Notes: generated from the sequence alone by a model not told the origin. Shown: positions 1 to 19,145, numbered from the stretch's first letter. The stretch: DNA of 64,000 nucleotides from an uncultured Photobacterium sp. (GCF_947039875.1 NZ_CAMRAN010000016.1:3592-67591); one strand, 5' to 3'. Translations and numbers: made by a program.

Positions 1-512
1 CCTAAATCTAGCGGGCCGAATGAATCAGGTAAGTATTGTTGCAGTGTCATGGGTTCGCGTTGTGGCAGTTGAATCATCATGTCGTTCGCTGATGTTAATT
101 CATTCATAAACTGACGGCAGTGACCACAAGGACTGTAGTTAATAGTGACATCTTTAATGCCCACTTCGCCCTTGATCCATGCATGGCTAATGGCAGATTG
201 TTCAGCATGAATAGTACAAGCCATGCTTGCGTTTTCAAATTCCATATTAGCACCAAAATATAAGCGGCCAGATGTGCCACGTACAATTGCACCAACATAG
301 AAATTAGAAATAGGGACTACAGCATAGGAAGCAGCAAGAGGAAGGAGGGCCAAGCGAAGTTCAGTATCAGTCATGTGCGTTGTTGATAATAAACATTCGA
401 ATTGCTCAGGACTGATCGTTGAGTCGAAATTTGAATCTTCGATAATAGGCTTTAAAGCTGACGCCAATTCAGCAGGTAATAAGCTTAATGCTTTTATAAC
501 ACGTGCGTACAT
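1..512 (-). CDS. cdd: Cytidine deaminase, partial (C-terminus runs off the left edge of the window)
   Basis: The minus-strand reading frame from the ATG at 512 gives [26 protein letters not shown]...[33 protein letters not shown]...[14 protein letters not shown]...[12 protein letters not shown]. The HAE and PCxxC zinc motifs and the layout match two-domain Cdd. It sits downstream of yohJ/yohK as in E. coli. Confidence 0.85.
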
Positions 513-727
513 TGGGTGTTACTCCTTCATTGTTTATGGCAAAACATTCTATGTGAATCACAATGAGTTAGAAGTGATCTTGATCACACTGTTGGTTTTG
601 CCATTACACCTATTACATTACTGAGAGTGGCGTCACACTTGTTTCTGTAACAAAGCATACAACATTTCAATGACTTAGTAAAAATTGACCGTTTTGTATG
701 CTTTGTGCTCAATCGTGCTATTGCTGA

Positions 728-1414
728 TCAAGCATGTCCAAAAATACGTAATAGTAGAGGAAACATCAGTGGGGCTAATAAGGTGGTCATAATGCCGCAA
801 ATAACCAAAGCTAAAGAACTAAATGCACCTTCTTGATAGTTTTCTTCTACGGCTTTTGCTGTACCTAATGCATGTGACACCGTACCAATTGACAAGCCTT
901 TTGCTAGTGGATGTTTCACGCGGAATAATTTCATGATTGGGTAACCTAATACCGCGCCAAATAACCCGACAATAATCACCATTGCAGAGGTAATCGCAGG
1001 AATCCCTCCAATTTGCTGAGAAGCCGCCATTGCAAGAGGGGTAGTGATAGATTTAGGTAAAATACTTGCTGCAAGTTGAGCATCCGCACCCATTGAAAAA
1101 GCAATCGCAGTACCAAAGGTCATTGATAACACGCTACCGACAAAACAAGAGGTTAAAATGGTTTTCCACTTACTGCGAATAAGCCCAATTTGTTGATATA
1201 GCGGGAAAGCTAATGCAACAACCGCAGGACCCAATAAATAGTTAATCACTTCATTTTGTGCAAAATAGGTCTGATAAGGCACTTCCAACCATTTTAAGGC
1301 CAAAATCATAACAATAAGCGTGATTAAAAGAGGGTTGAAAAAAGGATTTTTAATTTTCATTGCTAAATAACGTGCAACATAAAAGCAGACTAAGGTTGCC
1401 ACCAACCAAATCAT
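728..1414 (-). CDS. yohK: LrgB/YohK-family membrane protein
   Basis: The 228-aa polytopic membrane protein contains LGPAVVALAFPLY and SITTPLAMAAS, typical of the LrgB family. Its start overlaps the stop of the upstream LrgA-like gene by 4 nt. Confidence 0.85.
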   Translation of the reverse strand: MIWLVATLVCFYVARYLAMKIKNPFFNPLLITLIVMILALKWLEVPYQTYFAQNEVINYLLGPAVVALAFPLYQQIGLIRSKWKTILTSCFVGSVLSMTFGTAIAFSMGADAQLAASILPKSITTPLAMAASQQIGGIPAITSAMVIIVGLFGAVLGYPIMKLFRVKHPLAKGLSIGTVSHALGTAKAVEENYQEGAFSSLALVICGIMTTLLAPLMFPLLLRIFGHA

Positions 1415-1755
1415 GACTGTTTCTCCTTATGGTGTACCGCTAGGCCAATAACAATTAACACAATAACGGTGCTGCCAAGGGTACTTGCAAAAATGATCGC
1501 TGCGTTATTTTCAATGACACCTAAATAATTCATTAAACCAACACCAACAGGTACAAATAACAATGCCATGTGTTTAATTAATAAATTACAGGTACTTTCA
1601 ACCCACTCTGCACGACAAATGCCAGTGACAAGAGCAATAAAAAGAATAAATAAGCCGATGATACTGCCAGGAACCGGTAATCCAGACCAGTGCTGAATGC
1701 CTTGTCCTAAAAAGAAACAGATCATGACGATAGCAAATGAGCGTATATAATTCAT
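1411..1755 (-). CDS. yohJ: LrgA/CidA/YohJ-family small membrane protein
   Basis: The product has four predicted TM helices (PGSIIGLFILF, LLFVPVGVG). I prefer the internal ATG at 1755 (MNYIRSF...) over the long ORF start at 1794. Confidence 0.8.
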   Translation of the reverse strand: MNYIRSFAIVMICFFLGQGIQHWSGLPVPGSIIGLFILFIALVTGICRAEWVESTCNLLIKHMALLFVPVGVGLMNYLGVIENNAAIIFASTLGSTVIVLIVIGLAVHHKEKQS

Positions 1756-1876
1756 GGGTGGTATGACTCTTAAATATTTCCAATCATCATACAAATAAAC
1801 ATGATAATTGTCACACTAATTAATGGCGGTTAATGAACTATATTGGTTTCTGTTGATAAAACAAGCATTAATGTTG

Positions 1877-2398
1877 CTATATTGTCAAAATGTACCCACC
1901 AAGCAGTAGTGTAAATGTAATGATTATTAAGGTGCAAATAGTTGCGTAATTAGTCTTTATTCCCAAAGGGAACGGTTTTATTGTGTGCTTTTTTGTAATG
2001 TTTGACCATGACGGTGCTTTTTTTAATGCAGGTGTTTCATTACGCACTGCTGCGGTATTGGGTAATGACACGCGAAAGCCATAACTAGGGATAATATAGA
2101 TAGGTATCGCCATTTTGCCATTGCGAAGTAATTTTTTAGACAGTGATAATAATAGAATATTGAGATCATAATGATGATCTCCGCTATCCTCGTATGCATT
2201 GGGGTAGGTGAAGGTATAACGATAGACCGACTCAATACTGACAACTTCTCCCGCAAGATGGCAAAGAGAGGCTAAAAAACGGGATTCGTCATTAGTTAAC
2301 AAAGTTTGTTGATTATCATGCCATCGAAGTAGCCTATCTTCAGGAATAAAATCAATACCTTCAAAGCGATAGCATTTTATTGCCGTTTTCGTTGTCAT
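1877..2398 (-). CDS. ToxR/CadC-like winged-helix regulator with a C-terminal membrane anchor
   Basis: The N-terminus (YRFEGIDFIPEDRLLRWHDNQQTLLTNDESRFLASLCHLAGEVVSIESV...YGFRV) resembles an OmpR/PhoB-type DNA-binding domain. The C-terminus has one TM helix (ATICTLIIITFTLLLGGYILTI). An AGGTGG Shine-Dalgarno (SD) precedes the ATG at 2398. Confidence 0.55.
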   Translation of the reverse strand: MTTKTAIKCYRFEGIDFIPEDRLLRWHDNQQTLLTNDESRFLASLCHLAGEVVSIESVYRYTFTYPNAYEDSGDHHYDLNILLLSLSKKLLRNGKMAIPIYIIPSYGFRVSLPNTAAVRNETPALKKAPSWSNITKKHTIKPFPLGIKTNYATICTLIIITFTLLLGGYILTI

Positions 2399-2563
2399 TA
2401 TCCACCTACTTGTAAGCCCTTCGAACACAACCTCACTCGATAGCATTAAGTGTTGACGGAATTACGATAATCATCAAATAACAGATCTCATTAATAATAA
2501 AAAAGCCCATCACAAGATTCCTGTGATGAGCTTATTGTATTTTTAAATATGTAACACCATGAA

Positions 2564-3985
2564 TTACATCAATTTACTAATATAGTCATATAGTGATTTC
2601 ATGATCTTCATTTTGTGCTCATTTGACTGACAATCGAGCGCTGCTGCTTCAAAGTTCTCCATGTATTTGGTCATGTTCTCTTCAAAGAAATCTTGGCAAT
2701 GATGCTTCCAACGTTGTTGTTCTTGATAGGTGAGTGTTAATGGGTAGTTACGCGCACGATAGCGGAACAACAGCGGTTTAATACGCTCATCTTCAACATT
2801 GATTTCCAATGTAGCCAGTGACTCAACCTCTGTTTCACGAATAATATCCATCGTTGAGCGATCAGCGGTGGAGAAGAAACCATCGTAAAGCATGGTATCA
2901 ACGTTATCACTATTGGCGTATTCACGTTTAACACTGAACATTTCCAGCAATTTAGCCCGTATTTCAGGGTGCTGCTTTAATAACGCCAAATTTTTAAGGC
3001 ATAACTCACGATCAATACCGAGTCGCGCTGCATCTTCTGCTTTTAATGTTTTGGCAGGGGCGAGCACAGGACACTTGTTTAAATGCACTTCTTTAATCGG
3101 GACGGGGAGTTCATCTGGGCCAAGATCGATACGCTTAGTGTATAAACGCTCACGCAGTTGATCGGCATTCATCTCAATCAATGGGGTCGGATCTTGGGCT
3201 AGGTTAACGCAGATCACCGCATTTTTGTTATCAGGATGCCACGCCATCGGCACGATCCAACTGGTATTGCCACATTCAGTGCCAAACATACCCGATACAT
3301 GCACAATCGGGGTTAGATCAACAATATCAATCAGATCTTGTAATTTACGCTTATGACGCAACTCAAACAGGTAATCAAACAGTTTAGGTTGGTTGTGCTT
3401 TAAAATCTTCGCCAGCTCAATCGTGGCGTACACATCAGCCATGGCATCATGGGCATTCGCGTGTTCAATGCCATTGGCGATAGAGAGCTTCTCAAGCTTA
3501 AAGCTCGGACGACCTTCATCATCTGTTGGCCAGTTAATGCCATCAGGACGCAATGCATAACAAGTACGCATGATATCGAGTAAATCCCAACGAGAGTTAC
3601 CGTTTTGCCACGCCCAGCCATAAGGATCATAAAAGTTACGGTATAACGTATAACGGGTCACTTCATCATCAAAGCGCACGTTGTTATAACCAATGACACA
3701 GGTATTTGGCTTTGATAGCTCAGCATGAATTTGCGCAATAAACTCAGGCTCTGATAAACCCTTCTCCATTGCCTCTTGTGGTGTAATACCTGTAATCAAA
3801 CAGGCTTCAGGTGAAGGTAGGTAATCGGCTGGTGGCTTACAATAGATCACCAAAGGCTCACCGATGATGTTCATCTCCATATCGGTACGCACCCCTGCAA
3901 ACTGGCAAGGGCGATCATTTGCTGGACTGGCACCAAAGGTTTCGTAATCAATCCAGTATAAGCTTGGTTCGTTGGTTTTTTTCAT
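2564..3985 (-). CDS. sbcB: Exodeoxyribonuclease I
   Basis: The 473-aa protein begins FYWIDYETFG-type (SLYWIDYETFGASPANDRPCQFAGVRTD) and carries the DEDDh exonuclease motifs (GYNNVRFDDEV, HDAMADVYATI). Confidence 0.95.
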   Translation of the reverse strand: MKKTNEPSLYWIDYETFGASPANDRPCQFAGVRTDMEMNIIGEPLVIYCKPPADYLPSPEACLITGITPQEAMEKGLSEPEFIAQIHAELSKPNTCVIGYNNVRFDDEVTRYTLYRNFYDPYGWAWQNGNSRWDLLDIMRTCYALRPDGINWPTDDEGRPSFKLEKLSIANGIEHANAHDAMADVYATIELAKILKHNQPKLFDYLFELRHKRKLQDLIDIVDLTPIVHVSGMFGTECGNTSWIVPMAWHPDNKNAVICVNLAQDPTPLIEMNADQLRERLYTKRIDLGPDELPVPIKEVHLNKCPVLAPAKTLKAEDAARLGIDRELCLKNLALLKQHPEIRAKLLEMFSVKREYANSDNVDTMLYDGFFSTADRSTMDIIRETEVESLATLEINVEDERIKPLLFRYRARNYPLTLTYQEQQRWKHHCQDFFEENMTKYMENFEAAALDCQSNEHKMKIMKSLYDYISKLM

Positions 3986-4143
3986 AGTTTTCCCAAAAGC
4001 CGTTGGCTCAATATCAAGTTACTGCAATCCATGACACGCTGCATATCAACTTAATATTTTCTTAAAGCAATACGTTATAAAGCTAAGTATCCCGTAACTG
4101 ACCTAATAGAGGCAAGTTTTTAGGGAAAATAAAGCGTCCCCCT

Positions 4144-4216
4144 CGTCATTCTCTACAGTGAATGCCCAACTCCCCGTCATTCCCTACAGTGAATGCCCGC
4201 GAGGGCGATAGGGAAT
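4144..4216. repeat. Tandem 24-bp direct repeat plus an 8-bp inverted repeat at the left junction of the island
   Basis: CGTCATTCTCTACAGTGAATGCCC (4144-4167) recurs as CGTCATTCCCTACAGTGAATGCCC (4175-4198) with one mismatch. ATTCCCTA (4179-4186) pairs with TAGGGAAT (4209-4216). Confidence 0.6.
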
Positions 4217-4261
4217 CTACTATCCGCGTGTTGTAGGGATTATTAGTAGTGGTATCGTTAT

Positions 4262-4917
4262 TGCCGTAAAAGTAAATTCATTATTGAAAAAACGGACTTA
4301 GACCGCATTAAGAGACAACACGTAGGTAAAGCACCAGAAGTAGGAACCCGAGTACCAACGTTTTCAGAACTCAGCATGATTTGGTTGGCTATCGAACGTA
4401 GCCGCGCTAGCTCATCTAATAAAGCGTTGCATCAACTAACCATGTTGTGGGGCAGTGTCTTTCAGAACTGCGCCTTGCTCGTCGTAGCCATTTTGATATG
4501 GAAGCAGGTATATGGACGGTACCGAAAGAGCTCAGTAAAACCAATACGCCAATAAGACGCCCAATTCCCACTAAAGCAAGGGCGATATTAGAGCGGGTAA
4601 TGGCAACTTATGATGATGTGTTGTTCCCTGGTGGTGATCTTGATAAGCCGATAACCATTTCAGCAGCTAACCGTTATATCCGCCGTATAAGAGATGGTTT
4701 ACCCATTGAAGATTGGCGAACTCATGATTTTAGACGTTCGTTATCTACTGGTGCATCAGAACTAGGTGTAATGCCACATGTGGTTGAAAAGATGCTTGGC
4801 CATGAGCTAGGTGGGGTATTAGCTGTTTATAACAAACATGATTGGTTAAAAGACCAGTTAGAAGGGTATGAGCTGTATGCTGAGAAGTTGGATAGTTACT
4901 TTTGTGCTTTCACTTGA
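4262..4917 (+). pseudogene. P4/CP4-57-type tyrosine integrase fragment, lacking its N-terminus and frameshifted
   Basis: One frame from 4262 reads ...VPTFSELSMIWLAIERSRASSSNKALHQLTML. The sequence then continues in another frame from about 4447 as GQCLSELRLARRSHFDMEAGIWTVPKE...HDFRRSLSTGASELG...EKMLGHELGGVLAVYNKHDW, which holds the catalytic R, HxxR and Y region. No N-terminal arm-binding part is present upstream. Confidence 0.8.
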
Positions 4918-5196
4918 GGCGTGGTATCTGTTAAATGTAGCTTCTTTGAGTCAAATATTGTCAGTTTTAATATTTGTACCGGATCGTGGAATCGAATCTT
5001 TGAAGGCTGTGCCAGTAGATTTTACAATCTGTTCCCTTTAGCGGAAACTCCACCTAAAACTTAACTATATTCTAAGCTATTGTGCGGAGAGATAAAGGAG
5101 GAAAACTATGCTTATCATGCGAAATTGTATTTACTTCACGCGAACTTTTTGTCTGTCAAAAGAATTGTTTAAATTAATAGCCCTGTTCATAGAAAT

Positions 5197-5227
5197 AAAC
5201 AAGCGATCCAATTGGTTCGCTTGTTTA
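5197..5227 (-). terminator. Rho-independent terminator candidate for the patatin/small-ORF operon
   Basis: AAACAAGCGATCC-AATT-GGTTCGCTTGTTT forms a 13-bp stem with one mismatch. On the minus strand it is followed by TTTATTTCT, about 25 nt past the stop at 5252. Confidence 0.55.
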
Positions 5228-5251
5228 TCGGGGAAATTTAAACACATTCAA

Positions 5252-5434
5252 TTATTTGTCATTTGGATTTTTTTGCTTGTTTGAAATGTGAATAATTTCT
5301 GGGTTCTCGTCTACTTCAGACTGAACGAGATCAATGATATGATCTAAACCAATCTTTAAGTTTTTGAACTTCTTATTTTTTTTCCTAGGAGCCATTTTAG
5401 GTTTCTCTGTGTGTTGCATTTCTATACATGTCAT
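5252..5434 (-). CDS. Small 60-aa protein coupled to the upstream patatin gene; function unknown
   Basis: A GGGAG SD lies inside the last codons of the upstream gene, 8 nt before the ATG at 5434, and the gap is 5 nt. The N-terminal half is basic (KPKMAPRKKNKKFKNLK) and the centre is acidic (SEVDENPE). Confidence 0.5.
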   Translation of the reverse strand: MTCIEMQHTEKPKMAPRKKNKKFKNLKIGLDHIIDLVQSEVDENPEIIHISNKQKNPNDK

Positions 5435-5439
5435 ACTAG

Positions 5440-7320
5440 TTACTCCCTATTTTGCTTTGTGCCTATCTCTGCTGAAAATTCACTAATTGCTGTAGAAGCG
5501 ATGTAGCAGTACAAAGATAGTATAGAAGCATTGAAGTTATGCTCGTAAAGTGCATTAATCACATCCCTACTATCATCGTATAAAAAGTAATCGTCAAAAT
5601 CAATGGCCAGTACTGCTTTAGGTTTTATATTGTGCTTTGTAATTTCAGAAAAATTTATTAAATGCTCATCCAATTTATTAGTGCTGCCGTGAATAACCCC
5701 TTTCTCATTTAGCTCTCTTATACTAAAGATAGGAATTGTTATGATAACTTTCAATCCTTTCTTTACAAGAGCATTTCGATTAGTACTCATTGATAGAGAA
5801 TCTTTCATATGGCGGGTTAAATGGGTGCCACTTGGAACATAACTTTTATTGAAGTCAGGTAGGTAAATCATTGGTATCCCTGTATTGAGACAAATACCTG
5901 ACGCTCCTTCTAAACTATCAAACTCAAGATAACGATCTAGATCGTTGTCCATATTGTAATGGTAAACGATCTTGCTTGTATTCAGATTATGGTCTACTGA
6001 CGCAATCAAGCAAGCTCTAGAGTTTTCAAGATTGCCAATTATTCCCCCCCCATATTGAATAAATTGTGTTAATACTTTTGAATAAGCTGTAATGAATGAG
6101 TGGCTAATATCCTGTAACCAGTTTCGTGCGCTTCGTTTTGGGAAAAGAGCATAGTTGTCAATTAACGAATCTCGAGTTTGATTGTAGGCATTATTGTAAA
6201 GTTCAAATACATCATTTTCCTTAAGTGAAAATGAGAGGGTTTTTACTGGACCTGTATCAATCTTTATCAGATCCAGTCCTTTAACACTGATATTCTCTAT
6301 AGAACTGGCTCCCCACAGTGCTGTAATTGCTAAATTTTTGAAATATGTTATAGGATTGTCAACATCTTTTCTAATCCGGAGTGATGGAGATAATTTGACA
6401 CCGATTGTATGCTTCAGGTCATCTAGAAGTAGGTGCTTTCTATAGCTCCAAGCTGGAAAATTACTCAGCATCCCACCATCAACGAATTGATAAATATTTC
6501 CATTTATTTCAATTTTTTTACATTTAAAAAATAATGGTATGGAAATACTTGCTAAAATTCCATCTATTACTTTAACGTTCTTAGTTAATTCGTTTTCATG
6601 GGAAAAAATTGTAATTTCACGAGTGCTAATATCAGATGAAATTAGTTTTAAGTGAAGGTTACTTATCTTAAACAATTGATCAAACGTTAGATCTTTGGCC
6701 TTAATAGATGCAGGCGCAGATGTTAAAAGAGGGGAGTCTTGGATTATCGTCTCAAGCCATTTTTCAATAGATTTTGTAGATAACAGCCCAAAACCCCACA
6801 TAACAAATGTTGCCGGTATAATCGTTGGTATGATAATTATCAAGAAAGATACTATTGTTATGGAAGCAAAAGCTGCTCTGAGAAATTTTCTAAGATAAGA
6901 TAACGAAACCTTTTTGCTAAGATTAAAAGCTATTATAGAAATTGAAAAAGTAAGTACTATATACAGTAGGATTTCAAAAGATACAAAATATACCAAAGCA
7001 GAATAAGGTAAAATAAAGATGGTAGCTATCTTTAAAAATAACGTAATATAATCTTTTAGTGAGCTGAAAATTATCGTTTTTAAATTATGTGGAAGTTTAC
7101 CTTTTTTAGTTTTTGGATTATACAAGTCATCTGCACTGTATCCTAACGCTATCATAGTCGCTATGATAGATCCTGCTGATGTGCCTGCTAATTTATCTAC
7201 TCGTAAGTTATATTGTTCTATAGCCTTAAAAGCACCAATATGAGCGATACCCTTAGCGCCACCCCCTTCAAAAACAGCATTACAAAACATTTTTAATATT
7301 AACTTCTTAGTAATATACAA
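5440..7320 (-). CDS. Patatin-like phospholipase with inserted TM helices and a GAF-like C-terminal domain
   Basis: The oxyanion motif FEGGGAKG, the nucleophile elbow AGTSAG (Ser48) and the catalytic Asp motif VDGGMLSNFP are all present. Between the Ser and Asp motifs lie hydrophobic stretches (ATIFILPYSALVYFVSFEILLYIVLTFSISIIAF; ASITIVSFLIIIIPTIIPATFVMWGFGLL). The last ~200 aa show a GAF-like strand pattern (RACLIASVD...IVYHYNM...EGASGICLNTGIPMIY...VIITIPIFS...AVLAIDFDD). An alternative start exists at 7290. Confidence 0.85.
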   Translation of the reverse strand: MYITKKLILKMFCNAVFEGGGAKGIAHIGAFKAIEQYNLRVDKLAGTSAGSIIATMIALGYSADDLYNPKTKKGKLPHNLKTIIFSSLKDYITLFLKIATIFILPYSALVYFVSFEILLYIVLTFSISIIAFNLSKKVSLSYLRKFLRAAFASITIVSFLIIIIPTIIPATFVMWGFGLLSTKSIEKWLETIIQDSPLLTSAPASIKAKDLTFDQLFKISNLHLKLISSDISTREITIFSHENELTKNVKVIDGILASISIPLFFKCKKIEINGNIYQFVDGGMLSNFPAWSYRKHLLLDDLKHTIGVKLSPSLRIRKDVDNPITYFKNLAITALWGASSIENISVKGLDLIKIDTGPVKTLSFSLKENDVFELYNNAYNQTRDSLIDNYALFPKRSARNWLQDISHSFITAYSKVLTQFIQYGGGIIGNLENSRACLIASVDHNLNTSKIVYHYNMDNDLDRYLEFDSLEGASGICLNTGIPMIYLPDFNKSYVPSGTHLTRHMKDSLSMSTNRNALVKKGLKVIITIPIFSIRELNEKGVIHGSTNKLDEHLINFSEITKHNIKPKAVLAIDFDDYFLYDDSRDVINALYEHNFNASILSLYCYIASTAISEFSAEIGTKQNRE

Positions 7321-7495: not shown

Positions 7496-7705
7496 ATGGG
7501 TAATTATAGTATTACTTATGCGATTTATAATCCTAGGTGGGTATATGGAGTCGATGAAAAACTTTTAAAAATAGGTTCTTCTGAAATTGCACCTGAAGAT
7601 TATGAGCAATACATGCATGGTTCGATATTTTGTCCTAAGTGTTTTACTCCCTTATCAAGGAACCCATCGAAAAAGAATATATCAAAAAATGCTAAAACAA
7701 CATAA
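7496..7705 (+). CDS. 69-aa ORF with a CPxC element, possibly the N-terminal stub of a truncated gene
   Basis: MGNYSITYAIYNPRWVYGVDEKLLKIG...IFCPKCFTPLSR ends about 60 nt before the integrase 3' remnant. The SD is weak. Confidence 0.3.
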   Translation: MGNYSITYAIYNPRWVYGVDEKLLKIGSSEIAPEDYEQYMHGSIFCPKCFTPLSRNPSKKNISKNAKTT

Positions 7706-7767: not shown

Positions 7768-7808
7768 CAGTTAGAAGGGTATGAGTTGTATGCTGAGAAG
7801 CTGGATAG
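7768..7808 (+). repeat. Second copy of the integrase 3' end (a remnant of another integrase gene)
   Basis: Positions 7768-7808 match 4855-4895 at 39 of 41 bp. They read QLEGYELYAEKLDS then a stop soon after. Both differences are synonymous Leu codon changes (CTG/TTG). Confidence 0.75.
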
Positions 7809-7895
7809 CAATATAAAATAGATTTATCATTGATTGGATATGTAATTTATTTGGTATAAAATTGGTTTTAATTAAATATTACAAGTGGTTAAAAG

Positions 7896-9929
7896 ATGAA
7901 TGCTATAATTGAGACCAATATTATAAGCGACACTATAGTATTATCACAAATTGATAAAACCGTTAATTTTAAAAATTGTCTTGGAGTTTTTCAAGGTGGT
8001 GGATGTAAAGCTCTTGCGTTTGTTGGGGCTTATGGAGAAGCTAAATCTCGCGGTGTCAATTTTTCTGAAGTAGCGGGGACATCTGCTGGATCAATATTTG
8101 CTGCATTGATAGCTGCTGGTGCAACGCCTCAGTATATGGAAAATTTAATAAAGGATATTGACTTTAATAGATTTAATCACCCTATAGATAAGAATTTATC
8201 AAACAAATATGGATTTAATGAATATAAATATTCTCGAAAAATAGCAGGAAGGCTTTTTAAAAAAAATAAGATAATATCTAATATTCTAAACTTTGTAGAT
8301 AATATTGGTCTGTTTTCATCTGAAGAACTAGATCTGTGGTTAAATGATGAATTAAAAACTCTTTTAAATATTGAAAATAAAACAGTTACTTTTAAAGATT
8401 TAAAAATACCTCTTCATGTGATTGCGACTGATCTTATTAAAAAGAAGCAAAAGATTTGGAATGAAAATACTCCAGATGTTTCAGTCGCGTATGCTGTTCG
8501 CTGCTCTTGTAGTATACCTTTATATTTTCAGCCTGTTAATATGGAGTTTGTTGATGGGGGGTTAGTGAGTAACTTACCTTCATTTTCTTTAAATAATGGA
8601 GTAGGGCATTTTGAAAAAATATTATGCTTTACTTTGAGTAGTAAACCAGAAGAAATTAAATGTATAAAAACTTATTTAGAAAGTATTGCAGGCTCTGTTG
8701 TTGATGGTGCAATTCAAATACAAGAAACGCTTCAATATAATACATATAATATTAAAATTAATGATTTACCAGTTACAACAACAGGATTTGAAATTCTTAC
8801 TCCTGAGTTAATTCAAGATACTATTTCTATAGGTAAAAGAGCTGCAGCAGAATTTTTTAACGATGAAACAACTAAAATAAGTGAAAAAGAAGATATATCA
8901 ACACCAAAATTAACCAAAGATTATATTTTGAATTCGGTTGTTATGGAGGATGTAGATTGTCATAATCATATATATATGTGTTTTAATGATACAAAACATA
9001 TATATGGATTATTTCCTACAATATTGAGTTGGTTGGTTGAAAAAAAGATCAGAATAACATTTATAACTAGGTATATTAAAAATATTACAACTGATCATGA
9101 TAGTGTTTTGCATGAAAAATATCGAAGAAAACTAATTGAAAGATTTGGTATTCATTTAATTGAGAGAGAATCTATTCCTTTTGATGCATTTATATTTGAG
9201 GGTGATTACAAATATAATGATAAGGCGATATTCCTTTATGATAAAGACGACTTAGAATTTAATATAGGACATGGTGCAATATATGATGGTAAATATAACT
9301 TACATATCATATCATCATTAATAAAAATGTTAAATTTGACAGATAAAGATAAAAAAAATCATGACCTTATCATATCTAATTTAAAGAACTTTACTATTGA
9401 AAAATGTTCAAGTAAACAGCATATAAGAAAGCTAAAGAATGTACAGCAATACAAAGGAAAAAATGTTTCAATTAAAGAAATAAAACTTAATCTTTCTAAT
9501 GTTAAGTTAATGACAAAATATGTTAAATCATATAAGTACAACCAAATAGATAAGCTATATGAAATATTAAATAAAAACGGAATTTCATTATTTGATTACT
9601 CAGTAATAACTTTTTCTGATGGTTTACAGTTTTTAATTACACCTATTATTGTAGAAAAGCATGGAAATGATTATATTGTAATAAAAGGGAATAGTCGTTT
9701 AAATTATGCGTATAGAGAGTTAGAGTTAAATGGATATTTTAGTGCGGTTGTAGCTAATAAGGTATCAATTAACTTACCATCTATCGGATGCTATCCTACT
9801 TCAGATTGTATTATAACTACTATAAATAAAGAGGGATCAACCCGATATGAAAACTGGAGTTATCGCAATTTTAGACGTGTTGAAGAAACAATAAGAAATC
9901 CGAGTGATTTTTTAGAGGAGGAGATTTAA
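7896..9929 (+). CDS. Three-part fusion protein: patatin-like phospholipase, unknown middle domain, ParB/Srx-like C-terminal domain
   Basis: The N-terminus has FQGGGCKA, AGTSAG (Ser63) and VDGGLVSNLP. Residues ~340-520 carry no motif I recognise. The C-terminus reads ITPIIVEKHGNDYIVIKGNSRLNYAYRELELNG, matching the ParB N-terminal/sulfiredoxin-fold pattern (hydrophobic strand, Y-x-h-h-x-G-x-x-R). Confidence 0.85.
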   Translation: MNAIIETNIISDTIVLSQIDKTVNFKNCLGVFQGGGCKALAFVGAYGEAKSRGVNFSEVAGTSAGSIFAALIAAGATPQYMENLIKDIDFNRFNHPIDKNLSNKYGFNEYKYSRKIAGRLFKKNKIISNILNFVDNIGLFSSEELDLWLNDELKTLLNIENKTVTFKDLKIPLHVIATDLIKKKQKIWNENTPDVSVAYAVRCSCSIPLYFQPVNMEFVDGGLVSNLPSFSLNNGVGHFEKILCFTLSSKPEEIKCIKTYLESIAGSVVDGAIQIQETLQYNTYNIKINDLPVTTTGFEILTPELIQDTISIGKRAAAEFFNDETTKISEKEDISTPKLTKDYILNSVVMEDVDCHNHIYMCFNDTKHIYGLFPTILSWLVEKKIRITFITRYIKNITTDHDSVLHEKYRRKLIERFGIHLIERESIPFDAFIFEGDYKYNDKAIFLYDKDDLEFNIGHGAIYDGKYNLHIISSLIKMLNLTDKDKKNHDLIISNLKNFTIEKCSSKQHIRKLKNVQQYKGKNVSIKEIKLNLSNVKLMTKYVKSYKYNQIDKLYEILNKNGISLFDYSVITFSDGLQFLITPIIVEKHGNDYIVIKGNSRLNYAYRELELNGYFSAVVANKVSINLPSIGCYPTSDCIITTINKEGSTRYENWSYRNFRRVEETIRNPSDFLEEEI

Positions 9930-10612
9930 TGAACAATTTAAGTTATTTAAATTTTATTTGTAAAAAAAATCCTAATATAAACATATTGAGGGTTTTTGAT
10001 TTTTCTTTTTCCAATAAATTTCAAGAAATAAATGAAGAATTAACTGTAGATGAATTTGAAGCTGTAAAAAATTGTATAAAATATAAAAATAAATATGATA
10101 TGAGTTTTTGGGAATCATTATTTATATTAATGAAAGAAGGGCAGACTGTTAGTAAAAGAATGCTTAATCATTCAATTTTTCATAATGAGAATAATAAATA
10201 TATTAATATTAAGCGTGATGATTTTTTTGATTATATCAAAACTGATATTGATGGTAATGTAGCATTAAATTCTAAAGTAGTACTTAAAGATGGAACTGTA
10301 ATGCATATTCCAATGTTAGACTTTAAAATACCATCAAATAAAAGTAATTTAGACATTGTTCATAATGTTATTGAAATGTTTAACTTAGATGGATTAATAC
10401 TTAATAGTGGAAAGTCTTTTCACTTTATTGGATTTGATTTGATAACTGAAAATGATTTAATTAATCTACTTTCTAAGTTTATTCTTCTTCACCCTATCTC
10501 AGATAAAGCTTGGGCTGCTCATCAAATAATTGAACGCTCAGCTTCATTAAGAATATCAAAAAAATATGGTAAATATCCGTATTTAATGGAAAGTAAAATA
10601 AATCTATCTTAG
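9929..10612 (+). CDS. 227-aa protein of unknown function, translationally coupled to the patatin-ParB gene; motif spacing resembles primase-polymerases
   Basis: Its ATG overlaps the upstream TAA (TAATG) and a GGAGGAG SD sits 7 nt upstream. The C-terminal half contains HIPMLDFK, then about 30 aa, LNSGKSFHFIGF, then about 30 aa, LLHPISDKAW. The AEP resemblance is an inference only, because the DxD motif is incomplete. Confidence 0.75.
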   Translation: MNNLSYLNFICKKNPNINILRVFDFSFSNKFQEINEELTVDEFEAVKNCIKYKNKYDMSFWESLFILMKEGQTVSKRMLNHSIFHNENNKYINIKRDDFFDYIKTDIDGNVALNSKVVLKDGTVMHIPMLDFKIPSNKSNLDIVHNVIEMFNLDGLILNSGKSFHFIGFDLITENDLINLLSKFILLHPISDKAWAAHQIIERSASLRISKKYGKYPYLMESKINLS

Positions 10613-10664
10613 ATTATTTTAAAAATTTAAACCAAAGCGATCTCTCACCAAGATCGCTTTGTTT

Positions 10665-11006
10665 CTAAAACCGCTTTCCAAACCGACTGGTATTATCTTT
10701 CCATTCTTCAACTGCAGAACGTAACCAACGTAAGGGCATGAGTGTAATTGGTTCAGGGAAGCCACGTGTTTGTCGCCACTTATAAATTGTTGCTCGACTT
10801 GTGATTTGAAACATTTCTAATACTTCAACGTGACTAATTAAAAGATGCGTTGATTGCTCATTAAGTTCAGCATAAGTTTTTGCTGGTGGCGGTGAATATC
10901 GGTAGTTGCTTTGTTGTTTACTTTTGTAGTGTGACGGTGTCACGTTTAAGTTGTTTTCTGTGGCATAAGAAATATTTACAGTAGGGTAGCTGTTGTAATC
11001 GAACAT
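10665..11006 (-). CDS. AlpA/Vis-family phage-type helix-turn-helix (HTH) regulator or excisionase-like protein
   Basis: The C-terminus (LISHVEVLEMFQITSRATIYKWRQTRGFPEPITLMPLRWLRSAVEEW) is the typical AlpA HTH. I prefer the start at 11006 (MFDYNSY). Confidence 0.75.
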   Translation of the reverse strand: MFDYNSYPTVNISYATENNLNVTPSHYKSKQQSNYRYSPPPAKTYAELNEQSTHLLISHVEVLEMFQITSRATIYKWRQTRGFPEPITLMPLRWLRSAVEEWKDNTSRFGKRF

Positions 11007-11016
11007 GTTTGATTCC

Positions 11017-11172
11017 TTATTGGCATGTTGTACTAACAAAATTAGAAAGACGAACCCGATTCATGGTGTGCCAGCAACGGGCATCACCTTTAAATAAGCC
11101 TCCCGTCTTTAATTTTGCACATCCTTCCGGTAATGACTCACCACAATGTTGGCAAGTATCTAATGAGCTCAA
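11017..11172 (-). CDS. Possible 51-aa Cys-rich (zinc-ribbon-like) ORF just upstream of alpA
   Basis: A TTG start gives LSSLDTCQHCGESLPEGCAKLKTGGLFKGDARCWHTMNRVRLSNF. The stop lies 10 nt before the alpA ATG. I saw no ATG start and no clear SD. Confidence 0.3.
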   Translation of the reverse strand: MSSLDTCQHCGESLPEGCAKLKTGGLFKGDARCWHTMNRVRLSNFVSTTCQ

Positions 11173-11924: not shown

Positions 11925-12461
11925 TTAATTCAACAATTCAGCTAATATACGCTCTTGAGCGGCCTGTAATGACTCATAGCTTGCATACATTGCTACATTT
12001 GCATCAGATGTCGCCTCAAAGCCAAATTGTTCATAATGTTGGATAAGATCTTGGTGTGGCTGGACAACATATGCACCAACACTTTCTTCTCTTAATGCAA
12101 GAAAGTAAGTGGCTGCGATGACGACTAGTGTTGTTAGTCTTCCATTCAGAGGGTGAGTTCTATTATTTCTGACCAGTGATTCAATTAAGAAAATATGTAA
12201 TTGGCCATCTGATGCAGCATAAATACCAAGCATTGCGCCATCAATGTCTAATTCAGATACTAATCGAAATCCTAAATGAAAAGAATCTTCATGTAAGTAA
12301 TGCCCATGCATAGCAAGCCAATTGAGGACGGTCCGATCATCTCGAACGAGTGCTTCAAAGTCATTATCAGTTAGGCTTTGAACACTAAGACCTAAATCAA
12401 CTTGATCAATAAATTGTTGTAAGAATGAAACCGTTTCTTGAAGGTCTTGTTGTATAGTCAC
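11925..12461 (-). CDS. Hypothetical protein with a GNAT-like acetyltransferase fold (tentative)
   Basis: The 178-aa product has LHIFLIESLVRNNRTHPLNGRLTTLVVIAATYFLA (an R-x-x-G-x-like segment) and a C-terminal QHYEQFGFE, reminiscent of GNAT motifs A and B. Confidence 0.45.
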   Translation of the reverse strand: MTIQQDLQETVSFLQQFIDQVDLGLSVQSLTDNDFEALVRDDRTVLNWLAMHGHYLHEDSFHLGFRLVSELDIDGAMLGIYAASDGQLHIFLIESLVRNNRTHPLNGRLTTLVVIAATYFLALREESVGAYVVQPHQDLIQHYEQFGFEATSDANVAMYASYESLQAAQERILAELLN

Positions 12462-17975: not shown

Positions 17976-19145
17976 ATGACTAAAGCAGTAATTGTCGATT
18001 TCGTACGTACCCCAATGGGTAAATCAAAAAATGGCGTTTTCCGTAATGTTCGTGCAGATAAATTGAGTGCGCATTTAATCAAAGCATTAATGGAACGAAA
18101 TCCAAAAGTAGCGCCATTAGAAGTAGAAGATGTTGTGTGGGGCTGTGTGCAACAGACGTTAGAGCAAGGAGCTAATTTAGCTAAAATTGTGGCGTTACAA
18201 GCAGGGTTGCCTGTTGAAGTCACTGGTACAACGGTGAATCGTTTATGCGGTTCATCAATGGACGCTTTACATATTGCCGCTCGTCAAATTAAATCAGGAG
18301 AAGGCGATATCTTTATTGTGGGTGGTGTTGAGCATATGGGACATGTTCCGATGACTCATGGCGTTGATTTATCAGGACCATCAGATTTTGTAATGGCACA
18401 AGCATCGGCAGCAATGGGGCTGACAGCAGAAGCATTAGCAAAACTAAATCACATTTCTCGTGAAGAGCAAGATGAGTTAGGTGTACGTTCACATAAATTA
18501 AGTCTTCAAGCTCAAAATAATGGTTATTTTAAGACTCAAATTGTTCCTACTCCTGGCCATGATGAGATGGGCACACCGATTATGGTTGATCGCGATGAGG
18601 TGATTCGTGAAGATGCAACTATTGAATCCTTCAGTAAATTACGTCCATGCTTTGATCCTTCATCTGCTGGTACCGTTACGGCTGCAACGTCATCTGCTTT
18701 ATCTGATGGCGCTTCGGCATTATTAGTAATGAGTGAAGAAAAAGCAAAATCATTAGGTTTAACCATTCGAGCTGAGATTATATCAATGGCGACGGCTGGC
18801 GTACCTGCTGCGATTATGGGGATTGGTCCCGTTCCTGCTTCAGAAAAAGCGCTTAAACGAGCAGGATTGACACTAAATGATATTGATAAATTTGAGTTAA
18901 ATGAAGCCTTTGGAGCTCAAGCAATCAGTTGTATTCGAAAAATGGGATTAACAGAGCGAATGGATGATATCAATATGCATGGGGGGGCGATTGCACTAGG
19001 TCACCCACTTGGTTGCTCTGGATCTCGTATTGTTGGTAGTGTAATTAACGTGCTAGAAACTCATGGTGGGGAATATGGCCTAGCGACAATGTGTATTGGT
19101 TTTGGACAAGGGATTGCAACGGTAGTTAAGATGTATAAAAACTAA
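17976..19145 (+). CDS. fadA: 3-ketoacyl-CoA thiolase paralog
   Basis: The 389-aa product has [11 protein letters not shown] (active-site Cys), [21 protein letters not shown] and MCIGFGQG. Confidence 0.9.

Follow-up and report, generated by a model that had tools for sequence, protein, structure and literature searches.

A patatin-iHKD-ParB fusion coupled to a primase 1D-like protein forms a candidate two-gene abortive-infection cassette in an uncultured Photobacterium

We have analyzed a two-gene cassette found in 64,000 nucleotides of DNA from an uncultured Photobacterium sp. (GCF_947039875.1, NZ_CAMRAN010000016.1:3592-67591). We refer to this whole stretch as the window and count all positions from its first nucleotide. 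The cassette (7896-10612) encodes a 677-aa protein, in which we recognize a patatin phospholipase domain, an inactive HKD (iHKD) domain and a ParB/sulfiredoxin (Srx)-fold domain, followed by a 227-aa protein related to archaeo-eukaryotic primases (AEP), named here AEP-1D. The genes are inherited together as a coupled pair that horizontal transfer has spread widely, and AEP-1D is a constant partner around which unrelated sets of effectors are swapped. Judging by its sequence, the cassette appears to be a new, divergent member of a kind of system that has been catalogued computationally. We give about even weight to the reading that the pair is a self-contained cassette for abortive infection, directed against phages or mobile elements.

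Gene 1 (7896-9929, + strand) was delimited as an open reading frame (ORF) with the help of its homologues, and gene 2 (9929-10612, + strand) as an ORF matching the Pfam family PF24387. The TAA stop codon of gene 1 (9927-9929) and the ATG of gene 2 (9929-9931) overlap by one base, giving a TAATG junction, while a GGAGGAG Shine-Dalgarno sequence lies inside gene 1 at 9917-9923, 5 nt ahead of the start of gene 2 (coupling junction, 9917-9931, + strand). An earlier reading of this DNA by a model, hereafter the original prediction, had described two ORFs coupled in this manner and quoted a series of motifs for both proteins; the ORFs and their junction are present where it had placed them, and all of the motifs were found at the residues given. 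At E<=1e-3, we found 485 homologues of the 677-aa protein, mostly of 620-690 aa and matching over their full length, and 43 homologues of the 227-aa protein. The alignments used throughout contain 39 full-length homologues of the large protein (32-68% identity) and 37 homologues of the small one, and the quoted motifs of both proteins are invariant in them. Given these homologues and the invariance of the motifs, we can conclude that both ORFs are real genes and not chance ones.

The patatin phospholipase domain (residues 31-228; 7986-8579, + strand) matched Pfam PF01734 with an E-value of 2.6e-25 (90.2 bits, against a cut-off of 27.7). It contains the FQGGGCKA oxyanion loop (G34-G36, K38), the G61-T-S63-A-G65 motif and VD220GG. 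The Ser-Asp dyad and the oxyanion loop are thus complete, and the catalytic set is intact, as had been claimed from the sequence. The GGG, G-x-S63-x-G and D220-G221 positions are invariant across the 39 homologues, which argues that the lipase is under selection for catalysis. By these features, gene 1 encodes an active-looking patatin phospholipase. Between this domain and the next lies a conserved region (residues 241-336; 8616-8903, + strand) that we defined with a custom hidden Markov model, LINK, which matches all members of the family; Q276, F298, G313 and E324 are invariant in it. It probably caps the lipase domain at its C-terminal side.

We modeled residues 336-677 of the large protein with AlphaFold2 (pLDDT 92.5, pTM 0.89), and Foldseek searches against the PDB resolved the model into a phospholipase D (PLD)/HKD-fold domain and a ParB/Srx-fold domain. 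The first of them, the iHKD domain (residues 341-488; 8916-9359, + strand), was delimited from the model, from Foldseek and from the Pfam matches of homologues. Its PLD-fold matches were BfiI (E 2.3e-4), TrmBL2, Zucchini, PLD1/2 and MITD1. When the C-terminal halves of 22 homologues were compared with Pfam, 18 of them matched PF24402 ('iHKD, inactive HKD-REase'), with a best E-value of 5.5e-14. The original prediction had seen no recognizable motif in this middle region. This holds in that nothing in it reaches a Pfam family, but the model and the matches of the homologues to PF24402 give it a fold, that of an inactive HKD/phospholipase D domain. The HxK(x)4D signature is not conserved among the 39 homologues: His405 is frequent but not invariant, the position of the Lys is variable and there is no Asp at +4. 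Hence, the middle domain is non-catalytic.

The ParB/Srx-fold domain (residues 496-674; 9381-9917, + strand) was assigned from Foldseek, the Pfam matches of homologues and the invariant columns of the alignment. Foldseek matched it to PadC (6ryk, probability 0.92), to the CDP-bound ParB proteins of M. xanthus (7bnk, 0.96) and B. subtilis (6sdk, 0.89), and to human Srx with ATP (3cyi, 0.84). Besides, PF24392 ('ParB CE domain') matched 9 of the 22 homologues, with a best E-value of 3e-5. Both results agree with the ParB/sulfiredoxin fold that had been proposed for this end of the protein. The residues P583, E587, G598 and R601 (both in GNSR), P628, R650, R660 and E663 are invariant in the 39 homologues. 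In the segment ITPIIVEKHGNDYIVIKGNSRLNYAYRE (residues 581-608 of the 677-aa protein), a strand leads into a helix that opens with GxxR (YIVIKG598NSR601; strand E257-262 and helix 264-273 in the model). An hhalign comparison of the family profile with approximate reference sequences of B. subtilis Spo0J and human Srx aligned GNSR with GERR in the former and with GCHR in the latter, in the right register but without significance. On the basis of the modeled fold, we predict that this is a nucleotide-binding domain.

AEP-1D consists of a helical N-terminal region (residues 1-105) and a primase-fold core (residues 107-217; 10247-10579). The core matched PF24387 ('AEP-like, Archaeo-eukaryotic primase 1D-like') with an E-value of 3.3e-24 (85.6 bits, against a cut-off of 27), and UniRef names homologues 'primase 1D-like protein'. 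In the AlphaFold2 model (pLDDT 95), the 22 best Foldseek matches were AEP-fold proteins, with probabilities of up to 0.96; they included the AEP domains of poxvirus D5/E5, the PrimPol of cyanophage S-2L, the PolDom of LigD, human Pri1 and HP0184, which we take to be AEP-like. The three motifs are HIPMLDFK (126-133), SGKSFHFIG (160-168) and ISD (190-192). H126, L130, D131, S160, G161, S163, H165, D192, W195, H198, E202 and R208 are invariant in the 37 homologues, and H126, D131, S163, H165, D192 and R208 are so even between the bacterial and the archaeal members. Motif II (S160-G-x-S-x-H165) and motif III (D192) are therefore present and invariant. The canonical DxD/DxE of motif I is not found: the motif reads LD131F(K/E), with a single carboxylate, throughout the family and including its distant bacterial and archaeal members. 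We infer that the '1D' in the Pfam name refers to this single Asp. The primase-like motif spacing with only one acidic residue in motif I, on which the original prediction had drawn, thus corresponds to an AEP family both by profile and by structure.

Compared with PrimPol, LigD PolDom and the AEP domain of poxvirus D5, AEP-1D has the same fold and recognizable motifs II (SGxSxH) and III. It differs from them in the one Asp of motif I and in its minimal 120-aa core, which has no helicase or Zn-binding module. It also differs in being absent from the phage collections searched, as INPHARED (50,697 phage records), IMG/VR and PHROGs all lack a relative of it. By this absence, AEP-1D is not a phage replication gene. 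Among 72,556 plasmids, only two carry a relative, and both are variant systems (see below).

Next to each other, the two proteins behave as one inherited unit. Pattern scans anchored on the small protein gave 5 genomic and 18 metagenomic loci. A ParB module lies directly upstream of AEP-1D in every bacterial-type locus that retains upstream sequence (17/17), and on all contigs of sufficient length at those loci the module is joined to iHKD and patatin in one protein. Conversely, the seven loci anchored on the large protein (from Pseudomonas, Parabacteroides, Bradyrhizobium, Vibrio metschnikovii, Phytobacter, Pedobacter and Vibrio sp.) all have an AEP-like gene directly downstream. At the loci with both genes, the gap between them lies between -35 and +40 nt, ATGA being the commonest junction. 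Pairwise identities of one protein correlate with those of the other (r=0.96 over 18 loci; Mantel 0/2000). The suggestion that the two genes co-occur and are coupled is borne out by these values. The pair was found in Gamma- and Alphaproteobacteria, in Bacteroidota and in metagenomes, and homologues of the large protein are present in free-living soil and marine Bacteroidota, in Planctomycetota and in Bradyrhizobium. The iHKD-ParB half gave 756 clusters at 50% identity (298 of them at E<=1e-30), nearly all of which are patatin fusions of 620-690 aa.

In other loci, proteins of the same primase-like family accompany different effectors. One representative has an 814-aa protein in which a PNP_UDP_1 nucleoside phosphorylase (PNP) replaces patatin on the iHKD-ParB scaffold, and which keeps most of the invariant residues of the ParB domain. 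Its locus (positions 1-5026 of a contig from Logan SRR30545107) encodes a Metallophos protein (493 aa), the PNP_UDP_1-iHKD-ParB protein and an AEP-like protein (245 aa). On the Mycolicibacterium chubuense plasmid pMYCCH.01 (2656-6600 of the extracted locus), SIR2(+STALD), DprA-SLOG and PRTase genes are followed by an AEP-like gene (PF24387, E 1e-47) that closes the operon, which itself lies between two integrases. On pSOD02 of Pantoea (4208-6381 of its locus), the AEP-like gene (E 2e-41) follows genes for an HD protein and a dGTPase, and at another locus it is found downstream of NACHT, YaaC and unknown genes. A constant partner with swapped effectors is a pattern typical of the sensor or signal-generating components of immune systems. 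We also observed an archaeal-looking locus (1750-7126 in the extracted portion of metagenome contig Ga0209541_10025479) with an RPA-like OB-fold gene, YdjM, RadA, a 200-aa AEP-like protein of PF24387 and IMPDH.

The neighbors of the cassette differ from genome to genome. An intact integrase gene lies directly upstream of it in Pseudomonas, Bradyrhizobium and V. metschnikovii. One locus adjoins Kiwa KwaAB and an integrase; one, an MmeI-like restriction-modification (RM) system and a GT4-conflict glycosyltransferase locus; one, an AAA_18-dCMP deaminase, RES-Xre and an integrase; one, MazEF and an insertion sequence element; and one, an XamI/Eco57I RM system. By a qualitative tally, defense genes or mobile islands stand beside the cassette in about 6 of the 10 contexts read.

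In order to place the cassette among known systems, we compared it with PADLOC-DB 2.0.0, Pfam, NCBIfam and the literature. PADLOC called no system, as had been anticipated; AEP-1D gave only a chance-level match (E 0.0067), and the large protein matched only through its patatin domain, as a generic phospholipase. The claim that the pair cannot be placed in a known system is not supported as it was worded, as Pfam holds families for all three of the unusual domains: PF24402 (iHKD), PF24392 (ParB-CE) and PF24387 (AEP 1D-like). These dedicated families and the UniRef naming indicate that comparative genomics has already described the parts and probably the system too. The three families probably come from the 2023 survey of nucleotide-targeting effectors by the Aravind laboratory. 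In the literature searched we found no paper treating the architecture of patatin-iHKD-ParB plus AEP. The DefensePredictor paper and a domain-centric discovery paper mention phospholipases only of the type found in cyclic-oligonucleotide-based anti-phage signaling systems (CBASS).

With the predicted nucleotide-centric conflict systems (ParB-CE, iHKD, AEP '1D'), the cassette shares a small protein that belongs to PF24387 and a large protein whose homologues match iHKD and ParB-CE. The partners of AEP-1D (PNP, Metallophos, PRTase, HD, SIR2/SLOG) are likewise the repertoire tied to those families. What sets the window apart is its large protein, from a low-GC Vibrionaceae clade, which is too divergent for the iHKD and ParB-CE models. 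Type I CBASS (CD-NTase plus CapV) resembles the cassette in its compact operon, its patatin suicide effector, the presumed nucleotide-related control by a partner and the defense-island context. However, no CD-NTase gene was found at our locus, the regulatory module is iHKD plus ParB and the partner has an AEP fold. Membership in CBASS was rejected on the lack of a CD-NTase, on the score of the 677-aa protein against the NCBIfam CBASS_lipase model (18 bits, cut-off 200) and because the PADLOC matches are at the level of domains only. GmrSD/BrxU and SspE also have a ParB/Srx-fold domain with a GxxR-type motif fused to a destructive effector. In their case an N-terminal ParB-like (DUF262) NTPase is joined to an HNH nuclease, whereas the cassette has a lipase and a C-terminal ParB domain, adds iHKD and an obligatory AEP-like partner, and implies no sensing of DNA modification. 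Finally, the palm-domain signal synthases Cas10 and mCpol (type III CRISPR and Panoptes) share with AEP-1D the concept of a polymerase-like fold making nucleotide messengers. This is an analogy only: AEP-1D belongs to the AEP fold family and not to the Cas10 palm, and has no cyclase motif.

In the mechanism that we propose, AEP-1D would be the upstream component, detecting infection and triggering the large protein. Upon infection, it would probably draw on the nucleic acid of the invader or on changes in the nucleotide pools, its product being a small nucleotide or a short 5'-triphosphate oligonucleotide. Such a product seems the most likely route, because the formation of a dinucleotide is the intrinsic first chemical step of primases and because SLOG-domain proteins, which are among the partners of AEP-1D, are sensors of nucleotide ligands. 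The iHKD-ParB module would read the product of AEP-1D. Nucleoside triphosphate (NTP)-dependent dimerization or switching of the ParB domain would then free the patatin domain, in the way of ParB CTPase clamps and of the DUF262 domains of GmrSD/BrxU and SspE. In GmrSD/BrxU, the ParB-like domain is an allosteric switch of the effector fused to it. The freed lipase would hydrolyze membrane phospholipids and kill the infected cell before the release of phage, as CapV does in CBASS. For SspE, one report (PMC13251355) describes NTP hydrolysis by the ParB-like domain as an allosteric switch of the fused effector. A more specific version of the mechanism is possible, although we hold it well short of probable: AEP-1D would represent a new class of immune signal synthase, the ParB/Srx domain (with iHKD) would be the first ParB-type sensor of a second messenger, and the same messenger would drive the lipase and, in sister systems, the PNP, SIR2, PRTase and dGTPase effectors. 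The single-Asp active site would then make a short 5'-triphosphorylated oligonucleotide, or another nucleotide derivative, when triggered by invader DNA; to this part too we would commit ourselves only tentatively.

Several observations weigh against a defense system of this design. As motif I has no second carboxylate, polymerase chemistry by AEP-1D is uncertain. A profile search with AEP-1D against all PDB sequences returned three chance matches (E>0.8), and one with the iHKD-ParB half returned none; since such sequence-only comparisons with solved structures gave nothing, the assignment to ParB draws on the fold, on the motif and on the Pfam matches of homologues. Foldseek itself gave the ParB part weak E-values (0.06-0.18). 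The 677-aa protein of the window has no Pfam match of its own to PF24402 or PF24392, so its predicted place in PF24402 comes by transitivity through its homologues. The Pfam name 'ParB-CE' suggests that its authors see this clade as a nucleotide-degrading effector and not as a receptor. The archaeal members of PF24387, of about 200 aa, occur in a housekeeping-looking setting beside RadA and an RPA-like gene, and the AEP-1D fold may have a housekeeping ancestor. The cassette is also found outside obvious defense islands, in a polysaccharide locus of Parabacteroides and as a bare two-gene insertion in Vibrio. Lastly, we found no experimental work on the pair in the literature searched.

The main alternative keeps the role in defense and changes the wiring, and we see it as a minority possibility. 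AEP-1D would then be a non-catalytic or nucleic-acid-binding sensor acting by direct contact, the ParB domain an NTP-hydrolyzing co-effector, and iHKD a domain that oligomerizes or binds the membrane. Such an arrangement would account for the single Asp of motif I, and both the tight coupling and the co-divergence of the proteins (r=0.96) are compatible with a stoichiometric complex. The name 'ParB CE domain' points the same way, as do the PNP variant locus, which joins ParB with two nucleotide-degrading enzymes (PNP and Metallophos), and the MITD1 and other PLD-fold matches, which suggest that iHKD binds lipid or membrane. Against it, H126, D131, S163, H165, D192 and R208 are constrained beyond the needs of a scaffold and mirror AEP motifs I-III. 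The partnering of AEP-1D with SLOG proteins fits a diffusible product and, to our knowledge, the ParB-family NTPases characterized so far are slow switches. One could also argue that the pair is a toxin-antitoxin or addiction module that stabilizes an integrative element instead of protecting against phage, with the patatin fusion as toxin and the AEP-like protein as antitoxin or immunity protein. Indeed, this is an overlapping two-gene operon on mobile islands beside integrases, and there are classical toxin-antitoxin pairs among its neighbors. We nevertheless find this reading improbable: antitoxins and immunity proteins are normally specific to their toxin, whereas small proteins of this one family are found beside unrelated sets of effectors (lipase, PNP, SIR2, PRTase, HD-dGTPase), and the small protein retains enzyme-like invariant residues. 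Moreover, toxin-antitoxin function and phage defense are not mutually exclusive.

Two further readings seem very improbable to us. The fusion could be a secreted or injected phospholipase effector, of the kind of ExoU, VipD/VpdC or the Tle-like effectors of type VI secretion systems (T6SS), with an accessory protein. It is true that the best NCBIfam match of the lipase domain is VpdC, an effector of the Legionella type IV secretion system (T4SS), but this match (43 bits, cut-off 1000) covers the patatin domain only and falls far under the cut-off. There are no secretion-system, PAAR or VgrG genes nearby, the fusion partners are cytoplasmic nucleotide-binding folds, and the family occurs in the free-living soil and marine bacteria mentioned above. 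The T4SS/T6SS reading was rejected on the weak match, the lack of secretion genes nearby and the cytoplasmic folds. Equally remote to our minds is a role of the AEP-like gene as the primase with which the integrative element replicates, the lipase being an unrelated cargo. The AEP fold would fit, and integrative elements and satellites often carry primase-polymerases. Yet AEP-1D has only the 120-aa AEP core, without helicase, Zn-finger or PriCT, and a degenerate motif I, and its relatives are missing from the phage collections and occur on only two of the 72,556 plasmids. It is, besides, always coupled to an effector gene, even in solitary two-gene insertions without other genes of an element. 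The minimal core, the lack of phage homologues and the constant coupling to effectors led us to reject this candidate.

If the cassette is a working defense system, as we propose, a primase-fold protein would be added to the few enzymes that set off bacterial immunity, and a ParB-fold NTP-binding domain would join the modules that gate suicide effectors. As the iHKD-ParB half alone forms 756 clusters at 50% identity and the family spans several phyla, such systems would make up a sizeable unexplored share of the bacterial immune repertoire. As AEP-1D joins at least four classes of effectors, what it makes or binds would explain the whole set of systems. Regarding annotation, the 'patatin-like phospholipase family protein' and the 'hypothetical protein' annotated in Vibrionaceae, Pseudomonas and Bacteroidota are one conserved functional unit.

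Within the window, the segment from 7 to 11 kb is the AT-richest, with a GC content of 0.25-0.31 as compared with about 0.37-0.45 across most of the remaining sequence. Promoter-like sites were no more frequent there than expected by chance in AT-rich DNA (25 found, 24.4 expected). A terminator-like hairpin with a 12-bp stem (10633-10661) lies between gene 2 and a convergent AlpA/excisionase-like helix-turn-helix gene (10665-11039, - strand). The latter matched HTH_17 (E 8e-4) and Phage_AlpA (E 0.009), both below the Pfam cut-off, as well as PHROG 33798 (E 2e-16) and phrog_66, 'excisionase and transcriptional regulator' (E 6e-7). Upstream, a truncated tyrosine integrase (4447-4917, + strand) retains only its C-terminal 156 aa (Pfam Phage_integrase, E 1.2e-14, positions 38-168 of the 172 of the profile). 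The AT-rich integrase/AlpA island that the original prediction had described therefore holds in its composition and in its excisionase/AlpA PHROG matches, but its integrase is a remnant and its AlpA gene stays below the Pfam thresholds. A stretch of 41 nt from the 3' end of the integrase (4855-4895) recurs, with 95% identity, at 7768-7808 (+ strand), 88 nt upstream of gene 1. This duplication suggests that cargo was added or exchanged at a hotspot linked to an integrase.

The same 41-nt direct repeat (4855-4895 and 7768-7808) brackets a 2.9-kb segment with a second patatin gene (5440-7320, - strand), which is unrelated to the first and divergent from the cassette. It encodes a protein of 626 aa whose lipase domain is split by a hydrophobic insert of about 110 aa, whose C-terminal 330 aa or so have no match in Pfam, PADLOC or NCBIfam, and whose cluster at 90% identity has two members only. 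This may be another stand-alone lipase defense gene. An 18-nt inverted repeat (7810-7827 and 10598-10615, 89% complementary) brackets the cassette almost exactly, and could be due to chance in such AT-rich DNA. Two small ORFs lie inside the degenerate integrative element: one of 69 aa (7496-7705, + strand) with a CPKC motif and no family match, and one of 178 aa (11925-12461, - strand) whose single match is PHROG 4350 (E 1.5e-18), a family of unknown function. Between sbcB and the integrase remnant, the spacer contains two tandem 27-nt copies (CCTCGTCATTCTCTACAGTGAATGCCC, 93% identical) at 4141-4198. The contig itself is registered in ENA as a metagenome assembly, and two markers of the window point to different genera within the Vibrionaceae, the family of the host: sbcB (2564-3985) falls in a Photobacterium cluster at 90% identity, and FadA (17976-19145) in an Aliivibrio cluster.

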